From the NCBI GenBank assembly GCA_951406725.2, contig OX597814.1, positions 77,934,001 to 77,998,000 of the forward strand: DNA of 64,000 bases, in the 5' to 3' direction. Of this stretch, positions 1-52,295 are shown in pieces. The notes below the pieces were generated by a model. The model saw nothing but the letters and a program-made list of their open reading frames with translations, was not told where the DNA came from and made no database searches. The translations under genes and the position numbers were made by a program. The stretch is from Octopus vulgaris. Taxonomy: Eukaryota. The first letter of the stretch is position 1. The number at the start of each line of letters is the position of its first letter.

Positions 1-222
1 CATATATATATATATATACACACATACATACATACATACATGCACATACATATATTTTTTCACACACATACACACACATATATATATATAAAAAATTCAC
101 CACCCCCACACACACAAATTACAAACCTATAGCGTACACACTCAAATATATCTCTACATACCCGCACACACACACAAACAAAGTACTAACATATACACAC
201 ATACCATGCATATACACACACA

Positions 223-255
<33 letters not shown>

Positions 256-707
256 AACAGATACATATGTAAATACATACACACGTACACAATGCTCACA
301 CACACACACACACACACATACACACACACCCGCACACAGTGCACACACACACACACATACAACGCGCGCACACACACATATACACACACACGCACACAGT
401 GCACACACACACACACACACACACACACAACACTCACACACATACATCACCTACATATATATAATGCATGCGTGTGCATGCCACGTATGTGTGCGGTCAA
501 TGCCCGCTAGTGTGTCCTATGCGTGCCGATGCGCGCATGTGCCCGCCCGCACGATATGCTGTGAGCGTGCGCGCGTCCCTATGTGCTTGCTCTGGATGTG
601 CTTCCAGGGGGTATGTTAGAGTATGTTTAGTTGTGGTCTGTATTTTTGAATAAGATTACTTTCCTTATTTATTCGTGTTTGGTCTGTGGTGTTGTCCGAG
701 CATTGGT
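1..707 (-). mobile_element. Inverted partial copy of the PLE 3' region (last ~30 codons of ORF2 plus 3' UTR), running off the window start
   Basis: Reverse complement of ~6008-6730. The ORF track gives the same 61-aa translation at 468..653(+) and 6062..6247(-). The junction with the direct pLTR has a 2-bp GT microhomology at 706-707. Confidence 0.93.
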
Positions 708-849
708 GTACGCTATAGGTTTGTAAATTGTGTGTGTGGGGGGTGGTGAATTTTTTATATATATATATGTGTGTGTATGTGTGTGAAAAAATATATGTAT
801 GTGCATGTATGTATGTATGTATGTGTGTATATATATATATATATATGTG

Positions 850-882
<33 letters not shown>

Positions 883-2094
883 ATATTTATTTGCATGTTT
901 ATGTGTGTATAAACATGTACATTATTTGCATGCGCATTGTGTATATGTATATTGTATGTATGTGTATTGTATATGTACGTGTACAATTAAGTGTATATAT
1001 TTGTGTGTATGTGTGCACTGTATATATGTATATTGTAGGTGTGCTATATGTGCATGAATACATGTATATGCATTGCGTGTATATATATGTATGCATTGTG
1101 TGTATGTATGTATGTTATGTGTGTGTGTGTGTATATATATATTATATGTATGCGTACGTGTATGTGTATGCATTGTATGTATGTATGTTGTGTGTATATG
1201 TGGTACATCTATGTATGTGTATGTAAACACTATTTATATGTATATGTGTATATATATATATGCATTGTCTATATATATATATATTATATGTATGTATTGC
1301 GTATGTATATTGCATGCATATATTGTGTATGTATATTGCTTACATGCTGTATGTGTGTATTGTATGTGTGTATATATATATGCTAGGTGTATTTGTGTGA
1401 TATTTATATTATGTATGTATGTGTGCGTGTGTTGTGTGTGTGTGTGTGTGTGTGTGTGTTGTGTGTGTATGTGTGTTATATATCTGTGTATGTTATATAT
1501 AGATACATGTTATATTTGTGTGCTGTGTGTATATGTGATATATGTGGGTGCGTTGTGTGTGGGTGTGTGTGTTCTGTGTGTGTGTGTGTGTTGTTTGTAT
1601 GTGGTGTGTGTTTGTATACTATGTGTGTGTGTGTGTGTGTTGTTGTGTGTGTGTGTGTTTGTGTGTATATATATGTGTGTGACAAACTGACGCTGTCTGA
1701 CCAGCAGGCACGGACACATCTATACACACCCGCATACTAACCTCCTGATAACCCCAAAATCATTCATGCATAAAGGGGAAGTATACACCACATTGGCTAC
1801 TTCTTCTGTTCTCTCAGTTCAGCCTTTCTGCTAATACTGACAGGTCAGTAAAAACATACTTAAAATATTCTGAGATGTACAAAAAATCCATTTTAATTTT
1901 TGCTGTCAAAACGCTGTATATATATACCAAAGATTGTATATATATACATGTAATGTGACAATTTGCGACAACCAATAATTAACGCAACCAATTCCCAATA
2001 ATATATTTGTTTTATCCTTTTCTGCCAAATTTTCCCAAATAGTCTCATCACACTATTGAACTTCTCTGTTACCAAACACTATATTTATACATGT

Positions 2095-2320
2095 AATGTG
2101 ACAATTATGTATAAAAAAACATTTTTGAATTCATAATATCCAATGTGACAATTATGTAAAAAACTTTTTGAATGCATAATATTCAATGTGACAATTATGT
2201 AAAAAACTTTTTTTGAACCCATAATATCAATGTGACAATTATGTAAAAAACTTTTTTGAATGCATAATATTCAATGTGACAATTATGTAAAAAACTTTTT
2301 TGAACCCATATTATTCAATG
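2095..2320 (+). repeat. ~44-bp minisatellite inside the pLTR (5 units here, 3 units at ~7985-8122)
   Basis: Unit aatgtgacaattatgtaaaaaacttttttgaa(tg/cc)cataatattc, counted directly. Confidence 0.9.
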
Positions 2321-2334
2321 TTTCCTTAAATGTA

Positions 2335-2373
2335 ACTTTTGACAATCTTTTACCAAAGTGAAACCGGTTAAGT
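2335..2373 (+). ncRNA. Atypical minimal type I hammerhead-like motif (U3-A8 core variant) in the 5' pLTR
   Basis: ACTT-TTGACAA-T-CTTT(tacc)AAAG-T-GAAA-CCGG-TT-AAGT: stem I ACTT/AAGT, palindromic ACCGGT stem III, at the pLTR position where PLE hammerheads usually sit. Confidence 0.55.
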
Positions 2374-2489
2374 AAATAAACATCGTTTAAATTGCATTTT
2401 CAAACCTTTTTTCTTATATAATCCCACTCGTGCGATACCCCACAACTCAACTTTTATATATATATATAAACATCACACGAGTCCCGAAA

Positions 2490-3797
2490 ATGCCACCCAA
2501 ATCACAACAAGCAGAATCTTTAATGAACCATAATATCCTAAAAGAATTACAAGAAATCTCCTCGAAACTTTCAACCATAATAAACAAAGTCGAACAATCG
2601 CACTTATACCTAAATGGACTCATGGAGGCCAAAACAACCAATCAAATCCCTGACATCATCCCAACACTGCAAAACCTAATGAAATCCATAGAGACGGCAG
2701 TGCTCCCAAAGCAGGAGCAAACTAAAGACTACTTCTCAATTAAAAGCTCTCTTAACAACACCTGGAGTAAAAATCTCAAAGCGCGTAAGTTTGCCTTCTG
2801 GAATTTCATAAAAAATAACAACAAAGCTGACATTTATGAAAAGTGGCTCAACTCCACCCCTATCATCCTACCCAGAAAACTACAAATAAAACCCATCCAA
2901 AATGAACCAGAAAACCAAAAAAACCTCAGGGAGAAACTAGCTTTTGAAAAATTCAAAACGGAAGTAGAACTCTTGCGGCTCAGAGCCAACACCAGTGAAG
3001 AAAAATCCAAGACCCTTGACAATGAAATGCAGATTGAAATCTCAAAACACTGTGAAGGAGCACTCCTTGATGAAACCACCAAACTCTGGAGAAAAAACTG
3101 CGAGGATGAAGAAATAACATCCCTCCAGCGAATGGAAAAAAACAGCTGGTTCACCAATTATGAAACAGAGTTCACAAAGGAACACCTTTCAAGCAACCCA
3201 TATTTTAAAATATCTACTTCAACTCACACCCCTCGCCAAAAACAAAGAAAACCAACCACAAAACACCGAACACACACCACCCCTAACATCGACAACAACA
3301 ACAACAGAACTTACAGACAGCACTACAATCCCATCAAAAGAACCGAGACACCCATCATCACACGACAAAACTTTACCAGACAACGTAGACCCCAACCCAC
3401 ACAAGAACCGTTCCAGATTCGGAGATCCTACCCATCACTTAGAAACCCATCTCTGAACTATGATTGTAGATTCCAACCCAAACCGCTCCTAACTCAGAGT
3501 TCTCCCCCAACATATAGGAATTCACTCCTAAACCATGAATATAGTTTCCAACCCACTCTAAGGAACCAACATTACACCCAGGACAAACAACCCAAACCCT
3601 GGAATAACCAAAACTCTTCCAGGAGGCCACACCAACAACCCAGACCCTGGAACAACCAAAACCTCCTCAACAGACAACATAGCAACAGGGGACAGAATCA
3701 CAACAACCAAAACCTCTTCAACAGACATGTCAACAGGGGACAGAATCACATACAGCAAAATACCGCAAATAGAAGAACCCCAGGATTCCTTTTTTAG
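2490..3797 (+). CDS. PLE upstream ORF1 (435 aa from ATG 2490); helical/coiled-coil-like N-terminal half, Q/N/R/P-rich low-complexity C-terminus; function unknown
   Basis: Long uninterrupted non-repetitive ORF inside the element. It starts ~20 nt after the pLTR (TA)n and ends with TAG at 3795-3797. Confidence 0.8.
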   Translation: MPPKSQQAESLMNHNILKELQEISSKLSTIINKVEQSHLYLNGLMEAKTTNQIPDIIPTLQNLMKSIETAVLPKQEQTKDYFSIKSSLNNTWSKNLKARKFAFWNFIKNNNKADIYEKWLNSTPIILPRKLQIKPIQNEPENQKNLREKLAFEKFKTEVELLRLRANTSEEKSKTLDNEMQIEISKHCEGALLDETTKLWRKNCEDEEITSLQRMEKNSWFTNYETEFTKEHLSSNPYFKISTSTHTPRQKQRKPTTKHRTHTTPNIDNNNNRTYRQHYNPIKRTETPIITRQNFTRQRRPQPTQEPFQIRRSYPSLRNPSLNYDCRFQPKPLLTQSSPPTYRNSLLNHEYSFQPTLRNQHYTQDKQPKPWNNQNSSRRPHQQPRPWNNQNLLNRQHSNRGQNHNNQNLFNRHVNRGQNHIQQNTANRRTPGFLF

Positions 3798-3825
3798 GCA
3801 AGGGCATCAGTTTCCACGACACCAG

Positions 3826-6099
3826 ATGGTAGATACCAACCCCGAAAAACCAAAAATAGTGAATCTTTCTAACCTAAACCTGTCGACACCACAAATAAAA
3901 ATCCTTTCAAGAGGACTAAAATTCACCCCAACTCCGCAATACCCTAACCTGAGGGAAATACAGGATGACATCTCGCACTTTTGCAGAAAATTACGCCTCA
4001 CAGAGGAATTTTTTGACAGAAAAACTAATAATAACGACGAATCAATGGTCTGTAACAAAAGCAACTATAATCCCATAAAAGGCAAAAACAAAACCTTAGA
4101 CAAATTTTGCGATTACATCTCCAACTTCCCTTATGGTGAACTCCCACAACCTAAACTCAAACCCAACACCAGTAAAAGAGAATGGGAAATCATCCATACG
4201 CTACGAGACAATCATGACGTCACAATAAAGGAAGCTGATAAGGGTAGTACGGTCGTTGTTATGAATACTGAGCAATATAAAAACTCTGTATCTCTCCTTT
4301 TAGAGGATACCACATACTACGAAAGAGTAGTCGACTACCAGCAATCCAAAACAATGACCAATCTGAAGGCACTCATTTACCAACACCGGAATGACTTGAC
4401 AGCAAAGGAATGCGACTACATTACTAAATTTAATTGCAAAACCAGCACACTCTATGGGCTTCCAAAAATACACAAGAGTCAAATTATCACAGAAGCTTGC
4501 AAAAAGTCCACTTCAACCTGCATCACTATACCACATCCCACTGATCTCAAACTGAGACCAATAGTGGCAGGCCCAAGTTGTGAAACACACAGACTTAGCA
4601 ACTTTATAGATATCATCTTAAAGCCAATACTGAAACACATTCCAAGTATTGTAAGAGATGACCTGGACCTATTAAACCATCTCCCCAAACATGCCGATAA
4701 AGACACCTTAATCGTTTCTTTTGATGTTATTAATCTTTACACCACAATCCCACATGAATTTGGACTGGAAGCCATTAAATTCTGGCTGGATAAATATCCC
4801 AATGAGATCCCGGAAAGAATTAAAAAAGAATTCATAATTGAGGGCCTCAAATTTATTCTGCAAAACAACTTCATGTATTTCCACAACAACACTTACAGAC
4901 AGGTCTCAGGGACTGCAATGGGTACGAAAGTTGCACCTACCTATGCAAACCTGGTGATGGCCTACCTGGAATCACATATCTATGAAAAATCCAAATATAA
5001 GTACGGCCAGTCTTTCCACAAATACCTGTTGGAGAACTGGAAACGCTACTTAGATGATTGCCTCATCCTATGGTCCCACACACTCGACCAACTTATAGAC
5101 TTCAAAAACCTTATCAACAGTGTAAATAACAACATTCAATTCACAATGGAATATAGTCAGGACCAACTCCCTTTTCTTGACATCCTAATCATTAAAAAAG
5201 GCGTCAACATTGAAACTGACATCCATTACAAACCCACTGACTCTAAACAATACCTTCTATTCACCTCCAATCACCCAAAACACACAAAGACAAATATCCC
5301 CTTCAACCTAGCGAGAAGAATCTGCACTATTGTCTCAAATGACACAACACGAAATAGAAGACTCCGGGAACTAAGGGCAATTCTTCTCGAAAGACATTAC
5401 CGGCATCACTAGTAGACAACGGAATAGAACGGGCCAAATCAATCAACATTCAAGACCTTCGAAAACCCAAACACATCCACAGTACAGTCAATAGCCTCCT
5501 TATCTCTCAACACACAACCCAAGGAATGCAGAAGCTTACACTATTATATACAACAACATTCCACAACTAAATCAAGACCCACGCCTGAAAAAAATACTGG
5601 CAGCTCATAAAATAATAAAAAGTAAGAGACAACCTAAATCCCTAAAAAACCTCCTCACCAACGCAAAATTACACAACACAAACCCACCGCCCACCATCAA
5701 AAATGTGGTCGCCCCAACTGTAAGACCTGCATCCACCTCATTGAGGGATCGTCGTACAAGTTCCACTCGGGACACACATTCATCATAAAAAATAACTTCA
5801 CGTGCGCATCAAAAAATTTACTCTACGTCATAAGGTGTGAAGGATGCCACGAAGACTACATAGGGCAAACGAGCCTTACCCTCAGAGACAGAATGACAGT
5901 TCACCGACAACAACTGAGGGACCCCTCCACAAGACAGATACCACTAAGTGGACACTTAGACCTTTGTGCACACAATAAGTCCCCCAAATTCTTAGTCTTC
6001 CCACTATACCAATGCTCGGACAACACCACAGACCAAACACGAATAAATAAGGAAAGTAATCTTATTCAAAAATACAGACCACAACTAAACATACTCTAA
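3826..6099 (+). CDS. PLE ORF2: reverse transcriptase + Zn-linker + GIY-YIG endonuclease (~758 aa after correcting three 1-bp deletions at ~5400, ~5498, ~5700)
   Basis: Motifs ILSRGLKFTPTP, IKEADKG, YGLPKIHK, LRPIVAG, FDVINLYTTIP, GTAMGTKVAPTYANL, RYLDD, LPFLDI, SNHP. After the shifts: YPASLVDNGIERA, KRQPKSLKNLL, KCGRPNCKTC, LLYVIRCEGCHEDYIGQT, HRQQ..GHLDLC, KESNLIQKYRPQLN. Confidence 0.93.
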
Positions 6100-6481
6100 C
6101 ATACCCCCTGGAAGCACATCCAGAGCAAGCACACAGGGACGCGCGCACGCTCACAGCATATCGTGCGGGCGGGCACATGCGCGCATCGGCACGCATAGGA
6201 CACACTAGCGGGCATTGACCGCACACATACGTGGCATGCACACGCATGCATTATATATATGTAGGTGATGTATGTGTGTGAGTGTTGTGTGTGTGTGTGT
6301 GTGTGTGTGTGTGCACTGTGTGCGTGTGTGTGTATATGTGTGTGTGCGCGCGTTGTATGTGTGTGTGTGTGTGCACGTGTGTATATATGTGTGTGTGTGC
6401 ACTGTGTGCGGGTGTATGTGTATGTGTGTGTGTGTGTGTGAGCATTGTGTACGTGTGTATGTATTTACATATGTATCTGTT

Positions 6482-6516
<35 letters not shown>

Positions 6517-6598
6517 TGTGTGTGTATATGCATGGTATGTGTGTATATGTTAGTACTTTGTTTGTGTGTGTGTGCGGCATGTAGAGATATATTTGAGT

Positions 6599-8369
<1,771 letters not shown>

Positions 8370-8457
8370 TTATTAGAGACAAAACCACTATTTTGCAAAA
8401 CAAACAAGGAAAGACTTAATCAATACATAAAATTTTAATAAATAGTCAAAAAAACCG

Positions 8458-8500
8458 CCACTACAATCGTTTCTTGTCTTGATCGACAATCTTCAGGTGG
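8458..8500 (-). ncRNA. Minimal type I hammerhead ribozyme
   Basis: Reverse complement of 10939-10981. Confidence 0.85.
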
Positions 8501-10938
8501 ACTTCAATCTAAAATATCAATATTTTAAAATATACAAATAATAATTTTAAAATAATTAAAGTATGAATGAAAAAATATAAATATATAATCCATATATAAC
8601 CTATATATAATCCATATATATAATCGATATATAAACAATATATAAACTAAAATAAACCTATCAACAATTAAATATAAAATATAAAATATAAAACAAAACA
8701 AAAAAATAATAATAAAATAATAATAAACTATATATACACCCATACACATATACCTAATTATATATAACCATATCTAACTACATACACTAAACCACACACC
8801 TATATATATATCCCTATACATACACATAAAAACGTCTAGGCAACTATAAATAAATAAAATAGCTAAATACTTCAACACAATACTTATTCATACTCCCACA
8901 CACACACACATACAACCCACATTCACGCTCTAGAAAACGGACATCACTCAAAATTATGAACGGAGAAATGGAATAAATGGAATTGAAAATTATATTCACT
9001 TGGTAAAACGAACACTACTTAAAAATTATGAATGAAACAATGCAATAAAACAACAGACATCGCAAATATACACAAATTACTACGAATTCCTTAACAAACC
9101 TACCATGATAAACCAAAACTCACAAAAACATATAATGATAAAATCTCCCTTTACTAAACTCTATAACATACCTATATAGCAATCCCCCTAACCTAAACAT
9201 TCACACACAAATACACACACGTAAACCACACACCCACGACATATACAAATACCCACACCACTTACACATACCAATACATACATATAAACCTCAACATATA
9301 CTCCAAAAACCCACTCAACCCCACACAGACAAATAAACACAAAAATTATGAATGGATTCTTTTATAAAACTACCATGATAAGCTAAAACTCACAAAACAG
9401 AAATGATAAAACCTCCCTTTACTAAACACTATAACATACTTATATAGCAATCCCTTTAACCTATACATTCACACACAAAAACACACACGTAAACCACACA
9501 CCCATAACAAATACAAACACCCACCCCACTCACACACACCCACAAGTACATATAAGCCTCAACATAAACACCAAACAAAATTACTTTACCAAGGAACTTA
9601 ACATATGTATAAAAAGTATAACCACTCCGGAAACGAACATCTCTAAATTAATGAATGGAGAAATGGAATAAATGGAATTAAAAATAATATTCACGTGGCA
9701 AAACGAACACCACTCAAAAATTATGAATGAAACAATGCAATAAAACAACCAACATCGAAAATAGACAAATTACCACGAATTCCCTAAAAAAAAAAAAAAA
9801 AAAAAACCATGATAAACCAAAACTCTTAAAAACATACAACGATAAAATCTCCCTTTGCTAAACTCTATAACAAACCTATATAGCAATACCCCTAACCTAA
9901 ACATTCACACACAAATACACACACGTAAACCACAGACCCACGACTTATACACATACCTATACTAACTTATAAACCTCAATATACACCAAAATCCACTCCC
10001 TCCACACACAGACAAATTAACACATACATCCCAAAACCTAAATAACAAACCCATATACACATTCACACACAAACACACACACAGGCAAAACACACACACA
10101 CAACAGATACATATACTCCCTCACATATACGCATATACATACTCACTAAACTCGATATATACAACAATATTTACACACCCACACTCATACAGATAAATAA
10201 ATTATACAACTAAAAACTCACACACAATCTCATATACATAAACACTCCTATGAAAACAACATTAAATACATCGTAATTAACCAGAATATCAAAAATAACA
10301 ATATGACATAAGGATAAATAAAATACATACTTACAAGTCAGTTTCAAATTATAAAGTGAAATTAAATTCTTATATTTGCGATGTCTGTTGTTTTATTGCA
10401 TTGTTTCATTCATAATTTTTAAGTAGTGTTCGTTTTACCAAGTGAATATAATTTTCAATTCCATTTATTCCATTTCTCCGTTCATAATTTTGAGTGATGT
10501 CCGTTTTCTAGAGCGTGAATGTGGGTTGTATGTGTGTGTGTGTGGGAGTATGAATAAGTATTGTGTTGAAGTATTTAGCTATTTTATTTATTTATAGTTG
10601 CCTAGACGTTTTTATGTGTATGTATAGGGATATATATATAGGTGTGTGGTTTAGTGTATGTAGTTAGATATGGTTATATATAATTAGGTATATGTGTATG
10701 GGTGTATATATAGTTTATTATTATTTTATTATTATTTTTTTGTTTTGTTTTATATTTTATATTTTATATTTAATTGTTGATAGGTTTATTTTAGTTTATA
10801 TATTGTTTATATATCGATTATATATGAATTATATATAGGTTATATATGGATTATATATTTATATTTTTTCATTCATACTTTAATTATTTTAAAATTATTA
10901 TTTGTATATTTTAAAATATTGATATTTTAGATTGAAGT

Positions 10939-10981
10939 CCACCTGAAGATTGTCGATCAAGACAAGAAACGATTGTAGTGG
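10939..10981 (+). ncRNA. Minimal type I hammerhead ribozyme
   Basis: CCAC-CTGAAGA-TTGTC(gatcaa)GACAA-GAAA-C(gatt)G-TA|GTGG: full canonical core, 4-bp stem I, 5-bp stem II, GUA cleavage triplet. Confidence 0.88.
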
Positions 10982-11150
10982 CGGTTTTTTTGACTATTTA
11001 TTAAAATTTTATGTATTGATTAAGTCTTTCCTTGTTTGTTTTGCAAAATAGTATTTTGTCTCTAATAATATTTTATAATATTTTACTATAAAATTGGATA
11101 TCCTAAATCTGATTTTTTTCCCTGTAAATTTGGATTTATTCCCTAATATT

Positions 11151-11225
<75 letters not shown>

Positions 11226-11270
11226 TATATATATACATATATGCATATATATATACTATATGCATATGTA

Positions 11271-11331
<61 letters not shown>

Positions 11332-11504
11332 GCCATATTTATGTTTATATATAATAACGAGAAAGATAGACGGCATGAAAGGCATTGTTAATGTGTCTAC
11401 GTCCCTGAAACTTAGCGGTTACACACCCTGGTTAGTGGTCCGAAGATCTTTTCTGCTCACCAAGCATTGTCACACACTGTTGACTTTTGGGGGCGACTAA
11501 AAGA

Positions 11505-11955
11505 ACGGAATCTCAATTCTCTCTAACGCTACCGGGAGCGCTACATCATTTGTGTTATGTGGAAAATATTGCATCAATATTGTACAAATGATGTTGGCAT
11601 CAATTTTAAAATCCATTCAAGACTTGGCCCCCGTGCTGTTAGCCCATTACAAATATCGAACTCAGTACACATAGCAACATTACGTCACAATAACTTCATC
11701 TCAACTGGTCCAGCCCTCTTTAATGCCATACCATAATACGTCAAAATGGAAACGGTTCCCATAAAATTCAAATGTTCACTGGACAAATTTCTTCAAAAAT
11801 CCCGAGCCAAACGCCTATACCTACACATGTTTCCAACAATAATAACTCTTTGCTAAAGTGGGCTATGGTGCCCCATATATGGCTAAAAGACTTCATCAGG
11901 TGGTGCTATTGAGTTAGACATCGCCTGGGCCTATATTGGCCGAAACATATTGTTT
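11505..11955 (+). mobile_element. 3' fragment of a CR1/L2-group LINE
   Basis: Degenerate frames read LNSL*RYRERYIICVMWKIL and FISTGPALFNAIP*YVK...FKCSLDKFLQK, typical LINE ORF2 C-terminal motifs. Confidence 0.65.
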
Positions 11956-12015
11956 ATGTATATGCATATATAAGTGTGTGCGTGTGTGTGCGTATATGTA
12001 TATGTGTGTATATAT

Positions 12016-21400: not shown

Positions 21401-21752
21401 GGCGTAGGAGTGGCTGTGTGGTAAGCAGCTTGCTTACCAACCAAATGGTTCCGGGTTCAGTCCCACTGTGTTGCACTTTGGGCAAGTGTCTTCTACTATA
21501 GCCTCGGGCCAACCAAAGCCTTGTGAGTGGATTTGGTAAACGGAAACTGAAAGAAGCCCGTCGTATATATATAAATATATACATGAATGTGTGTGTATGT
21601 GTTTGTGTGTTTGTGTTTTTCCTCCAACATCGCTTGACAACCGATGATGGTGTTTTTACGTCCCCGTAACTTAGCGGTTCGGCAAAAGAGACTGATAGAA
21701 TAAGTACTAGGCTTACAAAGAATAAGTCCTGGGGTCGATTTGCTCGACTAAA
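21401..21752 (+). mobile_element. tRNA-derived SINE, family A
   Basis: ggcgtaggagtggctgtgtggtaag..ggttccgggttcagtcccactg.. Confidence 0.9.
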
Positions 21753-42385: not shown

Positions 42386-42970
42386 AAAACCCGGGATTAT
42401 GTAGTTGGTAAGTAAACTTCTTACCACACAGCCAAATGAAAATGAGCTAAGAGCAGCAAGTGGCATGCATTTAAACAACAAATACGAACGAGGGTGTATA
42501 CACACGTACATATGTACACATACATCTGATTTGTTTAAAAGCCTAGAAATGCTCGTAGTCTCCAAGACAGAACAAAGTAAACAACTGCTTGGCATTATCC
42601 AAATACACTCAATTAGAGATACAATGAAAATTTGTAAAACATTTCAAAGTTTATCCAATTTACTTTCCCGGAATGAACAAATGCTCACCATGGCATGTGT
42701 ATATAGCATACGTTCATACATGCAAACAGTAATAAAACATACACATGTGTACAAAAGCGACGTGCACACCCATTCTAGACCATGAGTTCAAGTTTGTTTT
42801 ACGCATGCACCTACTACATGCATACAATAACCTATTCACAAATTCCAGGAATTGTCATGTTTCAAACAAAAGAACCTTGTCAATTTGAGAGGCGCCGCTG
42901 CGAAGGAATTAAATAGATTAAACCATAAAAAATACCTGCATCCATACACACGCAAGCACACACGTGTGCA
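42386..42970 (+). repeat. Left arm of a ~570-bp inverted repeat pair (partner 46410-46962)
   Basis: The ORF track gives near-identical translations SDL(F/L)KSLEMLVVSKTEQSK.. at 42405(+) and 46492..46854(-). Confidence 0.9.
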
Positions 42971-46409: not shown

Positions 46410-46962
46410 CGCACACGTGTGTACTTGCGTGTGTATGGATGCATGTATTTTTAAAGGTTTAATTCACTTCTTCTCTTCGCACCGGTGGCTCTCAAAATGA
46501 CAAGGTTCTTTTGTTTGAAACATGATTTGTGAATGAGTTATTGTATGCGTGTAGTGGGTGCATGCATAAAATAAACTTGCACTCATGGTCTAGAATGGGT
46601 GTGCACGTCGCCATTACTGTTTGCGTGTATGAGCGTACGACATATACACATGCCATGGTGAGCATTTGTTCATTCCAAGAAAGTAAAATGGATAAACTTT
46701 GAAATGTTTTATAAATTTTCATTGTATCTCTAATTGAGTGTATTTGGAGAATGCCAAGCAGTCGTTTACTTTGTTCTGTCTTGGAGACTACGAGCATTTC
46801 TAGGCTTTTAAGCAAATCAGATGTATGTGTGTACATGTGTACGTGTGTATACACTCTCGTTCGTCTTTGTTGTTTAAATGCATGCCACTTGCTGCTCTTA
46901 GCTCGTTTTCATTTGGCTGTGTGGTAAAAAGTTTACTTCCCAGCAATGTAACTCCGGGTTTA
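46410..46962 (-). repeat. Right arm of the inverted repeat pair
   Basis: Reverse complement of 42386-42970 with scattered substitutions and small indels. Confidence 0.9.
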
Positions 46963-47334
46963 GGCATAAGCAAACTGTTACTTAGTTAAAATGTTTGCGA
47001 ACTTTAGGTTAGTTAAAATATGCTTATTTCAACTTCTAAAGGCAAATTCACTGCAGGTACCGTGGAGAGAAAATGTTCTCTTATGGTAAAAAGGTGTAAA
47101 AACACCATATCTGTTCGGTGGTGTTCCCTGTCAGATTCTCAGACACACCGAAAAGAGGCAACTCTGGACAGACCTAATTAAAACTGTAATTGATTTGTGC
47201 TATTAGACTGCCAGGTAAGAAAAAAAATAAAGTAGTATCAGCGCCAAGAAGTGTTTAGACCTAAACGAGATTTATGTTAGTTAAAATATGTTTGTCACAA
47301 ACATATTTTAACCAGTGTAGAGTTAGCTCACATA

Positions 47335-48298
47335 TATATTTATAACAAAGTAAACTTGCAAGGTACCGCACGAGTGAAAATATATAGGAAAGAGGTTTTG
47401 AAAATGCTGAGGTCTTTTAAAGATGTTTAACTTTATCGGTTTCACTTTTTAAAAAAAGATTTTCAAAAGTAAAATGTAAAGCTTTGTTGTGTTAAAAAAT
47501 GGTTATCATAGTTGATAAATAGTTGTTTAAATAGTTCACATGAAAGTGTTCAAAATAGGTGGTAAAATAAATTTATAATTATTTTAAGTCCATCAGGAAT
47601 CATGGTTGTATATGAAGCATATATACAGAAGGAAATGTATTTAAGTATTTATACAGAATTTTAGGGGAATGACCAACCTTTCCATTTATTATCTTGTCTT
47701 CTAGTGTGTGTATGAGAGATGTTTGCTGTTATTAAACACAGTGTGGGAAGTTGGTTGGTGGGGGAGAGCGTTGTGGAATCAAAAGGATTTTTTTTTTTTT
47801 GGCCTAGTCTGTCATGGTTCAGTAGTTTTTGGGACTGGTCTTAGAGTTCAAAATGGTGTGTGTGCCTCTGTGCACGTTTCTATATGAGTGCGCGTATCTA
47901 TATGTGTATGGTCATTCCCCTAAAATTCTGTATAAATACTTTAATATGATTCCTTCTGTATATATGCTTCATATACAACCATGATTTTTGATGAACTTAA
48001 AATAATTATAAATTCATTTTACTACCTATTTTGAACACTTTCATGTAAACTGTTTAAACAAAAAGCCCCTCTTAACATTTTCATATCATTCATTGTCATT
48101 GATTCTATTTTTTAACATTATCTTATTATTAAAGACCGTATAAATGAATTTTAATACAACTATGATAACCATTTTTTAACACAACAAAGCTTATACAAAG
48201 CTTTACATTTTACTTTTGGTAATCTTTTCTTAATAAAATGAAACCGGTCAAGTCAATAAACATCTTTAAAATACCTCTGCATTTTCAAACCCTCTTTC

Positions 48299-48300
<2 letters not shown>
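47335..48300. mobile_element. Fold-back relic of a Neptune-family pLTR, with two U3-A8 hammerhead-like motifs (47430-47470 minus, 48212-48253 plus)
   Basis: Arms 47381-47674 and 47909-48300. The terminus gaaaccggtcaagtcaataaacatc.ttaaa..tgcattttcaaacc is homologous to 2360-2410. Ends in (TA)n. Confidence 0.75.
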
Positions 48301-48331
<31 letters not shown>

Positions 48332-51864: not shown

Positions 51865-52055
51865 TCATTCTTTTACACGTTTCAGTCATTTGACAGCGGC
51901 CATGCTAGAGCACCGCCTTAAAGGCTTTTGGTCGAACAACTCCATCCCAGAACTTATCCTTTGTAAGCCCAGTATTTATTCTGTCGGTAATTTTGCCGAA
52001 CTACTAAGTTACGGGGATAAGCACACCAACATCGATTGCCAAACGGTGGTGGTGG

Positions 52056-52087
<32 letters not shown>

Positions 52088-52295
52088 ACACAAACACACA
52101 CACACACACATACATACACATACATATATATATATACTTTGGGCTTCTTTTCAGTTTCCGTCTACTAAATCCACTCAGAAGACCTTGGTTGGCCGAGGCT
52201 ATAGTAGAAGACACTTGCCCAAGGTGCTATGCAGTGGGACTGAACCTGGAACCATGTAGTTGGGAAGTAAGAATCTTACCACACAGCCATGCCTA
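51865..52295 (-). mobile_element. tRNA-derived SINE, family A
   Basis: gggactgaacctggaaccatg..cttaccacacagccatgcct. Confidence 0.85.

Follow-up and report, generated by a model that had tools for sequence, protein, structure and literature searches.

A predicted -1 frameshift junction at a conserved U UUU UUA between ORF1 and the reverse transcriptase frame of a Neptune-type Penelope-like element from Octopus vulgaris

The 64,000-nt stretch of Octopus vulgaris contig OX597814.1 analysed here (hereafter the window, numbered from its first letter) carries near its start a retroelement with two open reading frames (ORFs), the second of which encodes a reverse transcriptase (RT) and an endonuclease. 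The RT domain (PF00078, RVT_1; E 4e-08) contains the sequence E-A-D-K-G with the DKG motif, and a GIY-YIG endonuclease domain (PF01541; E 2.5e-05) is encoded at the C-terminus in a later frame. The endonuclease has a CCHH-type motif (C-x2-C and later His residues, from a by-eye comparison with the rows of Fig. S2 of PMC8557442), and comparison with the Neptune rows identified C-x4-C-x2-C in the frame 5638-6099, in agreement with the CX2-5CxxC linker motif common to Neptune, Nematis and Naiad. The element is furthermore accompanied by pseudo-long terminal repeats (pseudo-LTRs) in the tandem/inverted arrangement of endonuclease-bearing (EN+) Penelope-like elements (PLEs) and borders on (TA)n at 8260-8365, a target that is not specific to Neptune. 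A DKG RT, a C-terminal CCHH-type GIY-YIG domain, the linker motif, pseudo-LTRs with an adjacent inverted truncated copy and a (TA)n boundary are all shared with the Neptune-type EN+ PLEs presented in PMC8557442, and the element therefore behaves as a Neptune-type EN+ PLE, a class assigned by features, the RT tree being one that contains no named Neptune references. In contrast to canonical EN+ PLEs, which are given as single-ORF elements in the same paper, two ORFs are found both in public sequencing runs and in relatives, with a separate ORF1 of approximately 350–470 residues preceding an RT frame in -1. A scan against Rfam of positions 1-12000 gave no hammerhead ribozyme, only repeat-driven matches that all fell below the gathering score, and a motif scan of 1-8275 found none either, the motif occurring only in a neighbouring element.

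In the letters of the window, ORF1 ends with GGA TTC CTT TTT TAG at 3795-3797, and the RT frame lies in +1 and is open from 3562. A preliminary description based on these letters had proposed that the CTT TTT TAG end of ORF1 is a shifty stop, a splice acceptor or a reinitiation signal, with ORF2 in +1 and open from before 3727. The coding sequence of the same copy is broken in three more places (near 5400, 5497 and 5700), and the junction was therefore suspected to be one more indel. Out of 24 public runs, 20 (from 8 studies) share at least half of the stretch's words, and four of these, one per study (X1, X2, X7 and X9), were compared with the window, all as contigs; none of the matching runs is recorded as RNA, and the RNA status of X1 and X9 is a guess. 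An additional C behind 3777 was found at 38.8 of 38.8 depth in X1, 119.1 of 119.1 in X2 and 948 of 964.9 in X7. For X9 the tabulated count is 0 of 9.86, yet a loose end before 3778 consists of the window's upstream letters plus the extra C. One record each of X1 (record 3) and X2 (record 11) extends across the C run as well as the T run, with flanks of more than 31 letters at either end. The T run at 3790-3795, the length of which the preliminary description had wished to see confirmed, is six T's with no indel listed in any of the four runs, thus neither five nor eight. The frame breaks at 5399, 5497 and 5698 likewise fall in C or A runs that lack a single base in the window, and all four public runs contain that base. 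X1 record 4 (757 nt) and X9 record 31 (1056 nt) each align without substitutions and with 3 gaps. Four one-base-short runs combined with the lack of substitutions in these records suggest homopolymer under-calling in long reads.

With five C's at 3778-3781 the two ORFs overlap by about 60 nt and the RT is in the -1 frame. ORF1 then reads CCT TTT TTA GGC and stops at the TAG at 3830-3832, with the TAG at 3795-3797 out of frame, and a stop at 3770-3772 leaves the RT frame open from 3773 onward only, six codons before T TTT TTA at 3790-3796. The latter is an X XXY YYZ heptamer in phase with ORF1, and in the runs as well as in relatives it is followed by a downstream ORF in -1 that is open from the heptamer, as at canonical -1 sites. 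Only two runs of at least six T's occur within 2490-6099, and by our own arithmetic the chance of one such run lying in phase within the 60-nt overlap is roughly 1%. The CTT TTT TAG end and the +1 layout are thus true of the window's letters but not of the form carried by the runs. A +1 frameshift at the shifty UAG (CUU UUU UAG), for which these letters would permit perfect +1 re-pairing of tRNA-Phe, is accordingly the least probable explanation of the junction and hardly credible: the stop arises because the window copy is without one C (13 nt upstream), three further runs in this copy are short by one base, two of which precede the endonuclease, and in no related locus is the U run immediately followed by a stop in the ORF1 frame or ORF2 found in +1. 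The resemblance to the +1 shifty stops of prfB/RF2 and antizyme is therefore limited to the letters of the window copy, as the runs and relatives have no stop beside the shift codon and a second frame in -1, and the junction peptide GFLFR/QGHQFPR predicted from +1 shifting would not arise from the junction as it reads in the public runs.

Related loci were collected with an RT alignment search, which returned 79 metagenome loci (the best 80 of at least 420 relatives) and 7 GTDB loci, to which L088 and a duplicate of L080 were added; the same search of viral contigs gave no matches. The junction is present on the contig for 11 loci close to the window element (L001, L002, L003, L005, L008, L011, L012, L015, L069, L080 and L088). 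Seven of them (L001, L002, L003, L012, L015, L080 and L088) fall in the 13-row RT clade of the window element (SH-aLRT 98, quick tree), and the RTs of L005, L008, L011 and L069, which were left out of the tree as too broken or short, are 41–46% identical. An in-phase T TTT TT(A/G/C) with the RT in -1 was found in nine of the 11 loci, and the stop/+1 layout in none. In all nine the T run is in codon phase with ORF1 and the codon before it ends in U, and the RT frame opens 0–15 codons before the heptamer. A match to the ORF1 profile lies directly upstream of the RT in six (L002, L003, L005, L008, L011 and L080); the contigs of L001 and L012 do not reach the start of ORF1, and the long upstream frame of L015 is not matched by the profile.

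The same loci bear on the two other explanations raised earlier. The T run and the AG behind it could form a 3' splice site linking the RT frame to an upstream exon, as TTCCTTTTTTAG followed by G resembles an acceptor and introns exist in PLEs (legend to Fig. 1 of PMC8557442). This is very unlikely, since AG directly follows the T run in only five of the nine heptamer-bearing relatives, none of which has a downstream in-frame ATG, and since the codon phase of the run and the U before it are kept in all of them. No joint at 3798 is listed in the four runs, and X1 record 3 is unspliced across the site, although the runs were compared as contigs and with guessed RNA status, so the absence of split reads at 3798 is not shown. 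Alternatively, the RT could be a separate product, started close to the ORF1 stop (AUG-G-UAG in the window copy) through termination-reinitiation or leaky initiation, with the U run either incidental or part of a reinitiation signal. The ATG at 3826 in the RT frame was indeed confirmed and lies 4 nt upstream of the ORF1 stop; in several of the closest ORF2 relatives the called start (ATG, GTG or TTG possible) falls 9–12 residues before the conserved I-N-L-S motif; and L088 lacks a U6 run but has an ATG in frame. However, considering AUG starts only, an in-frame ATG before I-N-L-S is found in none of the nine heptamer-bearing loci; a phase-locked U run and an RT frame open from the heptamer, seen in all nine, would not be needed for reinitiation; and the called ORF2 starts scatter from 1 to 84 residues from I-N-L-S, with 55 of 120 proteins, some of them maybe partial, having no such motif after the called start. 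Separate synthesis of the RT is thus improbable, though less so than splicing, and reinitiation at ATG 3826 would at most be a possible minor route in the window copy.

The proteins encoded upstream provide a second view of the junction. From 454 homologs of ORF1 the best 150 were listed, and 82 of these with fewer than 340 residues were dropped as likely partial, leaving 68. The dipeptide F-L, which is encoded by the heptamer in the ORF1 frame, occurs within the last 40 residues in 55 of the 68 (56 within the last 45); the three bins before this one contain it in 4, 5 and 6 of 68. K, E, Q, M and W are absent (0 of 56) from the position ahead of the terminal F-L, against a local background of 18.7% and 58 of 115 for F-L elsewhere. 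The codons of these residues cannot end in U, as would be needed at a U UUU UUR site. The ORF1 protein is predicted to comprise about 240 helical residues and a disordered tail; it matched no Pfam family and no fold in the PDB at E 0.001, and its matches in the structure Atlas (0.78–0.80) are unnamed clusters that serve as leads only. The tail contains a tandem 51-nt (17-codon) repeat at 3653-3750, where contigs break and the number of units may vary. Named RT relatives come from Octopus bimaculoides (83% identity, 66% query coverage), Argonauta, Mytilus, Saccostrea, Ylistrum and Solemya; Pinctada is represented in one ORF1 cluster. No fused ORF1-RT protein was found: among longer proteins none was close for ORF1, and for the RT only relatives of 30–33% were seen, in searches that were weak.

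Taken together, ORF1 and the RT-endonuclease ORF are very probably joined by programmed -1 frameshifting at the conserved U UUU UUA, as judged from the sequence of the window, the runs and the relatives. Most ribosomes would read F-L and stop at 3830-3832 to give an ORF1 protein of about 447 residues, while a smaller fraction, moving back by one base on the U run, would yield a fusion of about 1204 residues (sizes by arithmetic), in a ratio resembling that of Gag and Gag-Pol. A fusion of ~1200 residues through recoding at these very bases had been put forward in the preliminary description and is still the best reading, with another direction and mechanism. A close known parallel is HIV-1 gag-pol, whose site is also U UUU UUA; there the slippery sequence by itself is enough for some slippage, and evidence supports slipping once the next codon has entered the A site (PMC4373837). 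The window and most relatives share the HIV-1 heptamer, and in the window it is followed by a Gly codon and preceded by a structural-like ORF upstream of the RT ORF. HIV-1 differs in having a stem-loop right after the heptamer, whereas the window family has no conserved structure, a last heptamer base that varies (A, G or C) and a 0-frame stop at least 10 codons on.

A canonical -1 site has a stem-loop or pseudoknot 5–9 nt downstream (PMC7618472). Thirteen junctions were folded in four window sizes and compared to dinucleotide shuffles, and the junction of the window element gave z-scores of +1.15, +0.68, +0.68 and -0.16, i.e. no stimulatory structure. Scores of -2 or below were obtained for only three of the 13 junctions: L001 (-3.9), L005 (-2.1, and -3.3 at +4..+150) and L080 (-2.5 at +4..+100). 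A pseudoknot scan of the junctions returned nothing beyond shuffles, although this simple scan would miss long-range or unusual folds. The notion that stronger hairpins accompany more distant stops was dropped, the z-scores at +4..+70 being alike by eye for 6 and 7 junctions.

The position of the ORF1 stop is more regular. It lies 30 nt from the heptamer in five of the nine close junctions, 36 nt in two, and 51 and 57 nt in the remaining ones, compared to 33 nt in the window element. Among the 56 ORF1 proteins the stop is never fewer than 10 codons after F-L (F-L is never 2–11 residues from the end) and is exactly 10 codons after it, with F-L 12 residues from the end, in 20; the window element has 11. 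The ten-residue tails of these 20 proteins are 9.7% alike, compared to 7.4% when shuffled, with net charges from -4 to +7, and end branches in the clade to which most of them belong are 0.45–1.2 changes per column long. A stop as a by-product of a hydrophobic codon in the RT frame occurs in 67 of 228 cases (0.29), against 19 of 25 in this clade, in which tail length rather than sequence appears to be kept. A second spacing mode at about 20–23 codons (12 of 56) falls in related rows and was not used. A stop followed by CA was seen in four of the six junctions with 30-nt spacing, a post hoc observation in too few cases to use, and an AUG overlapping the stop at this position was looked for and found in none of the six.

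The spacing suggests a candidate stimulator. If frameshifting occurs, the pause could come from a leading ribosome terminating on the ORF1 stop 30–33 nt downstream, one ribosome-length away, with the trailing ribosome held on the U run. In synthetic Escherichia coli reporters, a ribosome stalled at UGA raises -1 slips of the trailing ribosome about 2-fold, most strongly when 9 codons separate the heptamer from the stop (Smith et al. 2019, PMC6815119), and bacterial queues behind stops are spaced by ~27 nt (PMC7544508). Disome A-sites in mouse liver are 30 nt apart, with footprints of 59–60 and 62–63 nt, and 30-nt phasing upstream of stops is cited in the same paper (PMC7397865); 10 codons is therefore the expected eukaryotic counterpart of the bacterial 9, and the 11-codon spacing of the window element may fit the longer disome class. 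The window family resembles the reporter system in combining a slippery heptamer, no RNA structure and a 0-frame stop one ribosome-length on. It differs from that synthetic E. coli system, with its slow UGA and optimum of 9 codons, as a natural animal element with predicted slippage, TAA/TAG stops and 10 codons as the commonest spacing. According to a section heading of PMC6815119, frameshifting at the IS3 pseudoknot falls when the ribosome load is high. In SARS-CoV-2 a 0-frame stop affects -1 frameshifting, which was explained by structure refolding (PMC8168617), but that stop is five codons away and inside the pseudoknot, whereas stops in the window family are never closer than 10 codons. 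Given frameshifting, we regard stimulation by a queue behind the stop-sited ribosome as plausible at somewhat less than even chances, and the broader proposal, that a widespread invertebrate clade uses a terminating ribosome exactly 10 codons past U UUU UUA as a stimulator replacing RNA structure, as slightly more tentative still.

The other possibility for this step, which we rate at about an even chance, contained in the confidence placed in -1 slippage overall, is that the slip is real but driven by the slipperiness of U6, by small lineage-specific hairpins or by a bound protein; in that case the 30-nt distance to the stop would reflect inheritance, or a tail length that the ORF1 protein requires. 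Such an account competes for the stimulator step only. It is favoured by the better-than-shuffle hairpins of L001, L005 and L080, by the clustering of the spacing label on the ORF1 tree, and by the mention of a frameshift with pseudoknot for some PLE types in the Fig. 1 legend of PMC8557442. Against it, 10 of 13 junctions including that of the window show no fold with z of -2 or below and pseudoknots are at chance level, the 10-codon tails share almost no sequence (though the end branches are long), and by-product stops are far too rare at 0.29 to match the 19 of 25 in the clade.

Several observations weigh against frameshifting as proposed here or against its stimulation by the stop. In X7, 17 of 965 depth is without the extra C, and the short C run of the window is either an assembly error or a copy-specific deletion in a decayed genomic copy. 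The heptamer is absent in two of the 11 loci, namely L069, where a decayed L003-family copy has five T's, and L088, which has T TAT TTT at the junction, and 12 of the 68 ORF1 homologs have no F-L in the last 45 residues. The downstream structure of a canonical -1 site is not conserved among the 13 junctions. The 10-codon spacing is clustered, with 19 of the 20 cases in one 25-row clade, and the spacing label requires 7 changes on the ORF1 tree, with none of 500 shuffles as low; p-values that assume independence are therefore too strong, and the spacing may have one ancient origin. Finally, the spacing exceeds 10 codons in 36 of 56 proteins, up to 40 codons, as well as in the window element, so queue stimulation cannot be the only route and other stimulators must exist in the family.

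Frameshifting with a pseudoknot is reportedly found in Athena/Terminon elements. According to the Fig. 1 legend of PMC8557442, there are PLE types in which a frameshift with a pseudoknot may set ORF1 apart, and the window family differs from these in that no pseudoknot was found. Frameshifting is thus known for PLEs in general and may already be noted for Neptune. Passages of PMC3846280, PMC6515669, PMC13712778 and PMC7196831 do not describe the junction, and a literature search, with most subscription papers and Repbase outside it, found nothing on the heptamer or stop spacing of the family and no natural -1 site driven by a stop queue. The features of the element are summarized in Table 1.

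Table 1. Parts of the Penelope-like element in the window and the basis on which each was placed.
Feature	Position	Strand	Basis
Inverted, 5'-truncated copy of the element's 3' end, adjoining the upstream pseudo-LTR	1..710	-	matches 6005-6737, 95.8% over 735 nt
Upstream pseudo-LTR-like block, repeated at 6599-8275	706..2468	+	706-2233 against 6599-8125, 98.0%; 2185-2468 against 7985-8275, 95.9%
ORF1 main part, from ATG 2490	2490..3777	+	~240 predicted helical residues, then low-confidence N/Q/R/P-rich tail
TAG, last RT-frame stop before the slippery site (form in public runs)	3770..3772	+	reading frames
C run, source of the apparent +1 junction	3778..3781	+	four C in the window, five in public runs
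ORF1 tail in the frame of the public runs: 17 codons, F-L plus 11 residues, TAG 3830-3832	3779..3832	+	stop 33 nt past the heptamer
Slippery heptamer T TTT TTA (X XXY YYZ), predicted -1 frameshift site	3790..3796	+	sequence, relatives
TAG of the preliminary description, in the ORF1 frame only in the window copy	3795..3797	+	window against public runs
RT-frame ATG lying 4 nt upstream of the ORF1 stop	3826..3828	+	no counterpart at the junction of 9/9 heptamer-bearing relatives
ORF2, reverse transcriptase part	3796..5399	+	PF00078, DKG motif
ORF2, thumb and linker, broken at 5399, 5497 and 5698 by one-base-short runs	5400..5698	+	window against public runs
ORF2, C-terminal part: C-x4-C-x2-C linker and GIY-YIG (PF01541), stop 6097-6099	5699..6099	+	domain match, motif
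Downstream pseudo-LTR-like block	6599..8275	+	self-comparison
(TA)n microsatellite at the 3' boundary of the element	8260..8365	.	sequence

Some related records show further variation at the junction. A subfamily comprising L002 (1337-1400), L011 (2134-2197) and the proteins P0012, P0033, P0043 and P0057 has D-H-N-W in the ORF1 tail and shares a stretch behind the heptamer, which may be a lineage-specific RNA element; in P0043 and P0057 Y-F replaces F-L, as in L088, perhaps representing a variant slippery site. Two other RT clades also have long upstream ORFs in the -1 layout. In a distant, separate clade (L024:936, L031:3806, L071:2923 and L058:3649; upstream ORFs of 300–830 codons), three members carry U UUU UUA with stops at 33, 30 and 42 nt and one carries U UUA AAC with an immediate stop, and in the clade of L049, L054, L062 and L064 the upstream ORFs overlap the RT by up to ~600 nt, and several heptamers, A AAA AAC among them, are candidates. 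PLE records filed under bacterial metagenome-assembled genomes or symbionts (L080-L085 and L088; P0195, P0204, P0214, P0227 and P0296), labelled Bacteroidota, Campylobacteraceae, SUP05, Thiodiazotropha or Solemya gill symbiont, are likely contamination from animal hosts.

Other repeats lie nearby in the window. Right after the (TA)n end of the PLE, a non-coding inverted-repeat element occupies 8260-9070 and 10371-11197 with arms of 95% identity, and has related copies at ~27.7–30.8 kb. Its arms contain a minimal hammerhead-like motif (CTGAAGA...GAAA) at 10943 (+) and 8496 (-), which has no Rfam match and does not form a hammerhead in single-strand folding. Diverged copies (73–78%) of the 5' non-coding stretch 2326-2468 of the PLE are found in opposite orientations at 47333-47479 and 48203-48305, and two further inverted repeat pairs, 42387-42969 / 46411-46961 (86%) and 21411-21752 / 51927-52289 (78%), are probably other non-autonomous elements.

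The window copy illustrates how one-base-short runs in an assembly can make a -1 junction look persuasively like a +1 shifty stop. Should the -1 reading be borne out, a large group of PLEs from molluscs and other invertebrates would make its RT as a minority ORF1-RT fusion in the manner of Gag-Pol, and RT proteins in databases would carry wrong starts and omit ORF1. If the stop in addition acts as the stimulator, the junction would be a natural case of collision-driven -1 frameshifting, otherwise found only as a synthetic bacterial reporter, and the use by a natural gene of ribosome collisions over RNA structure would become directly testable in a family that offers dozens of natural spacing variants (10 to 40 codons). 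A higher ribosome load or slower termination would then increase RT output, and the activity of the retrotransposon would be tied to ribosome load and the speed of termination.

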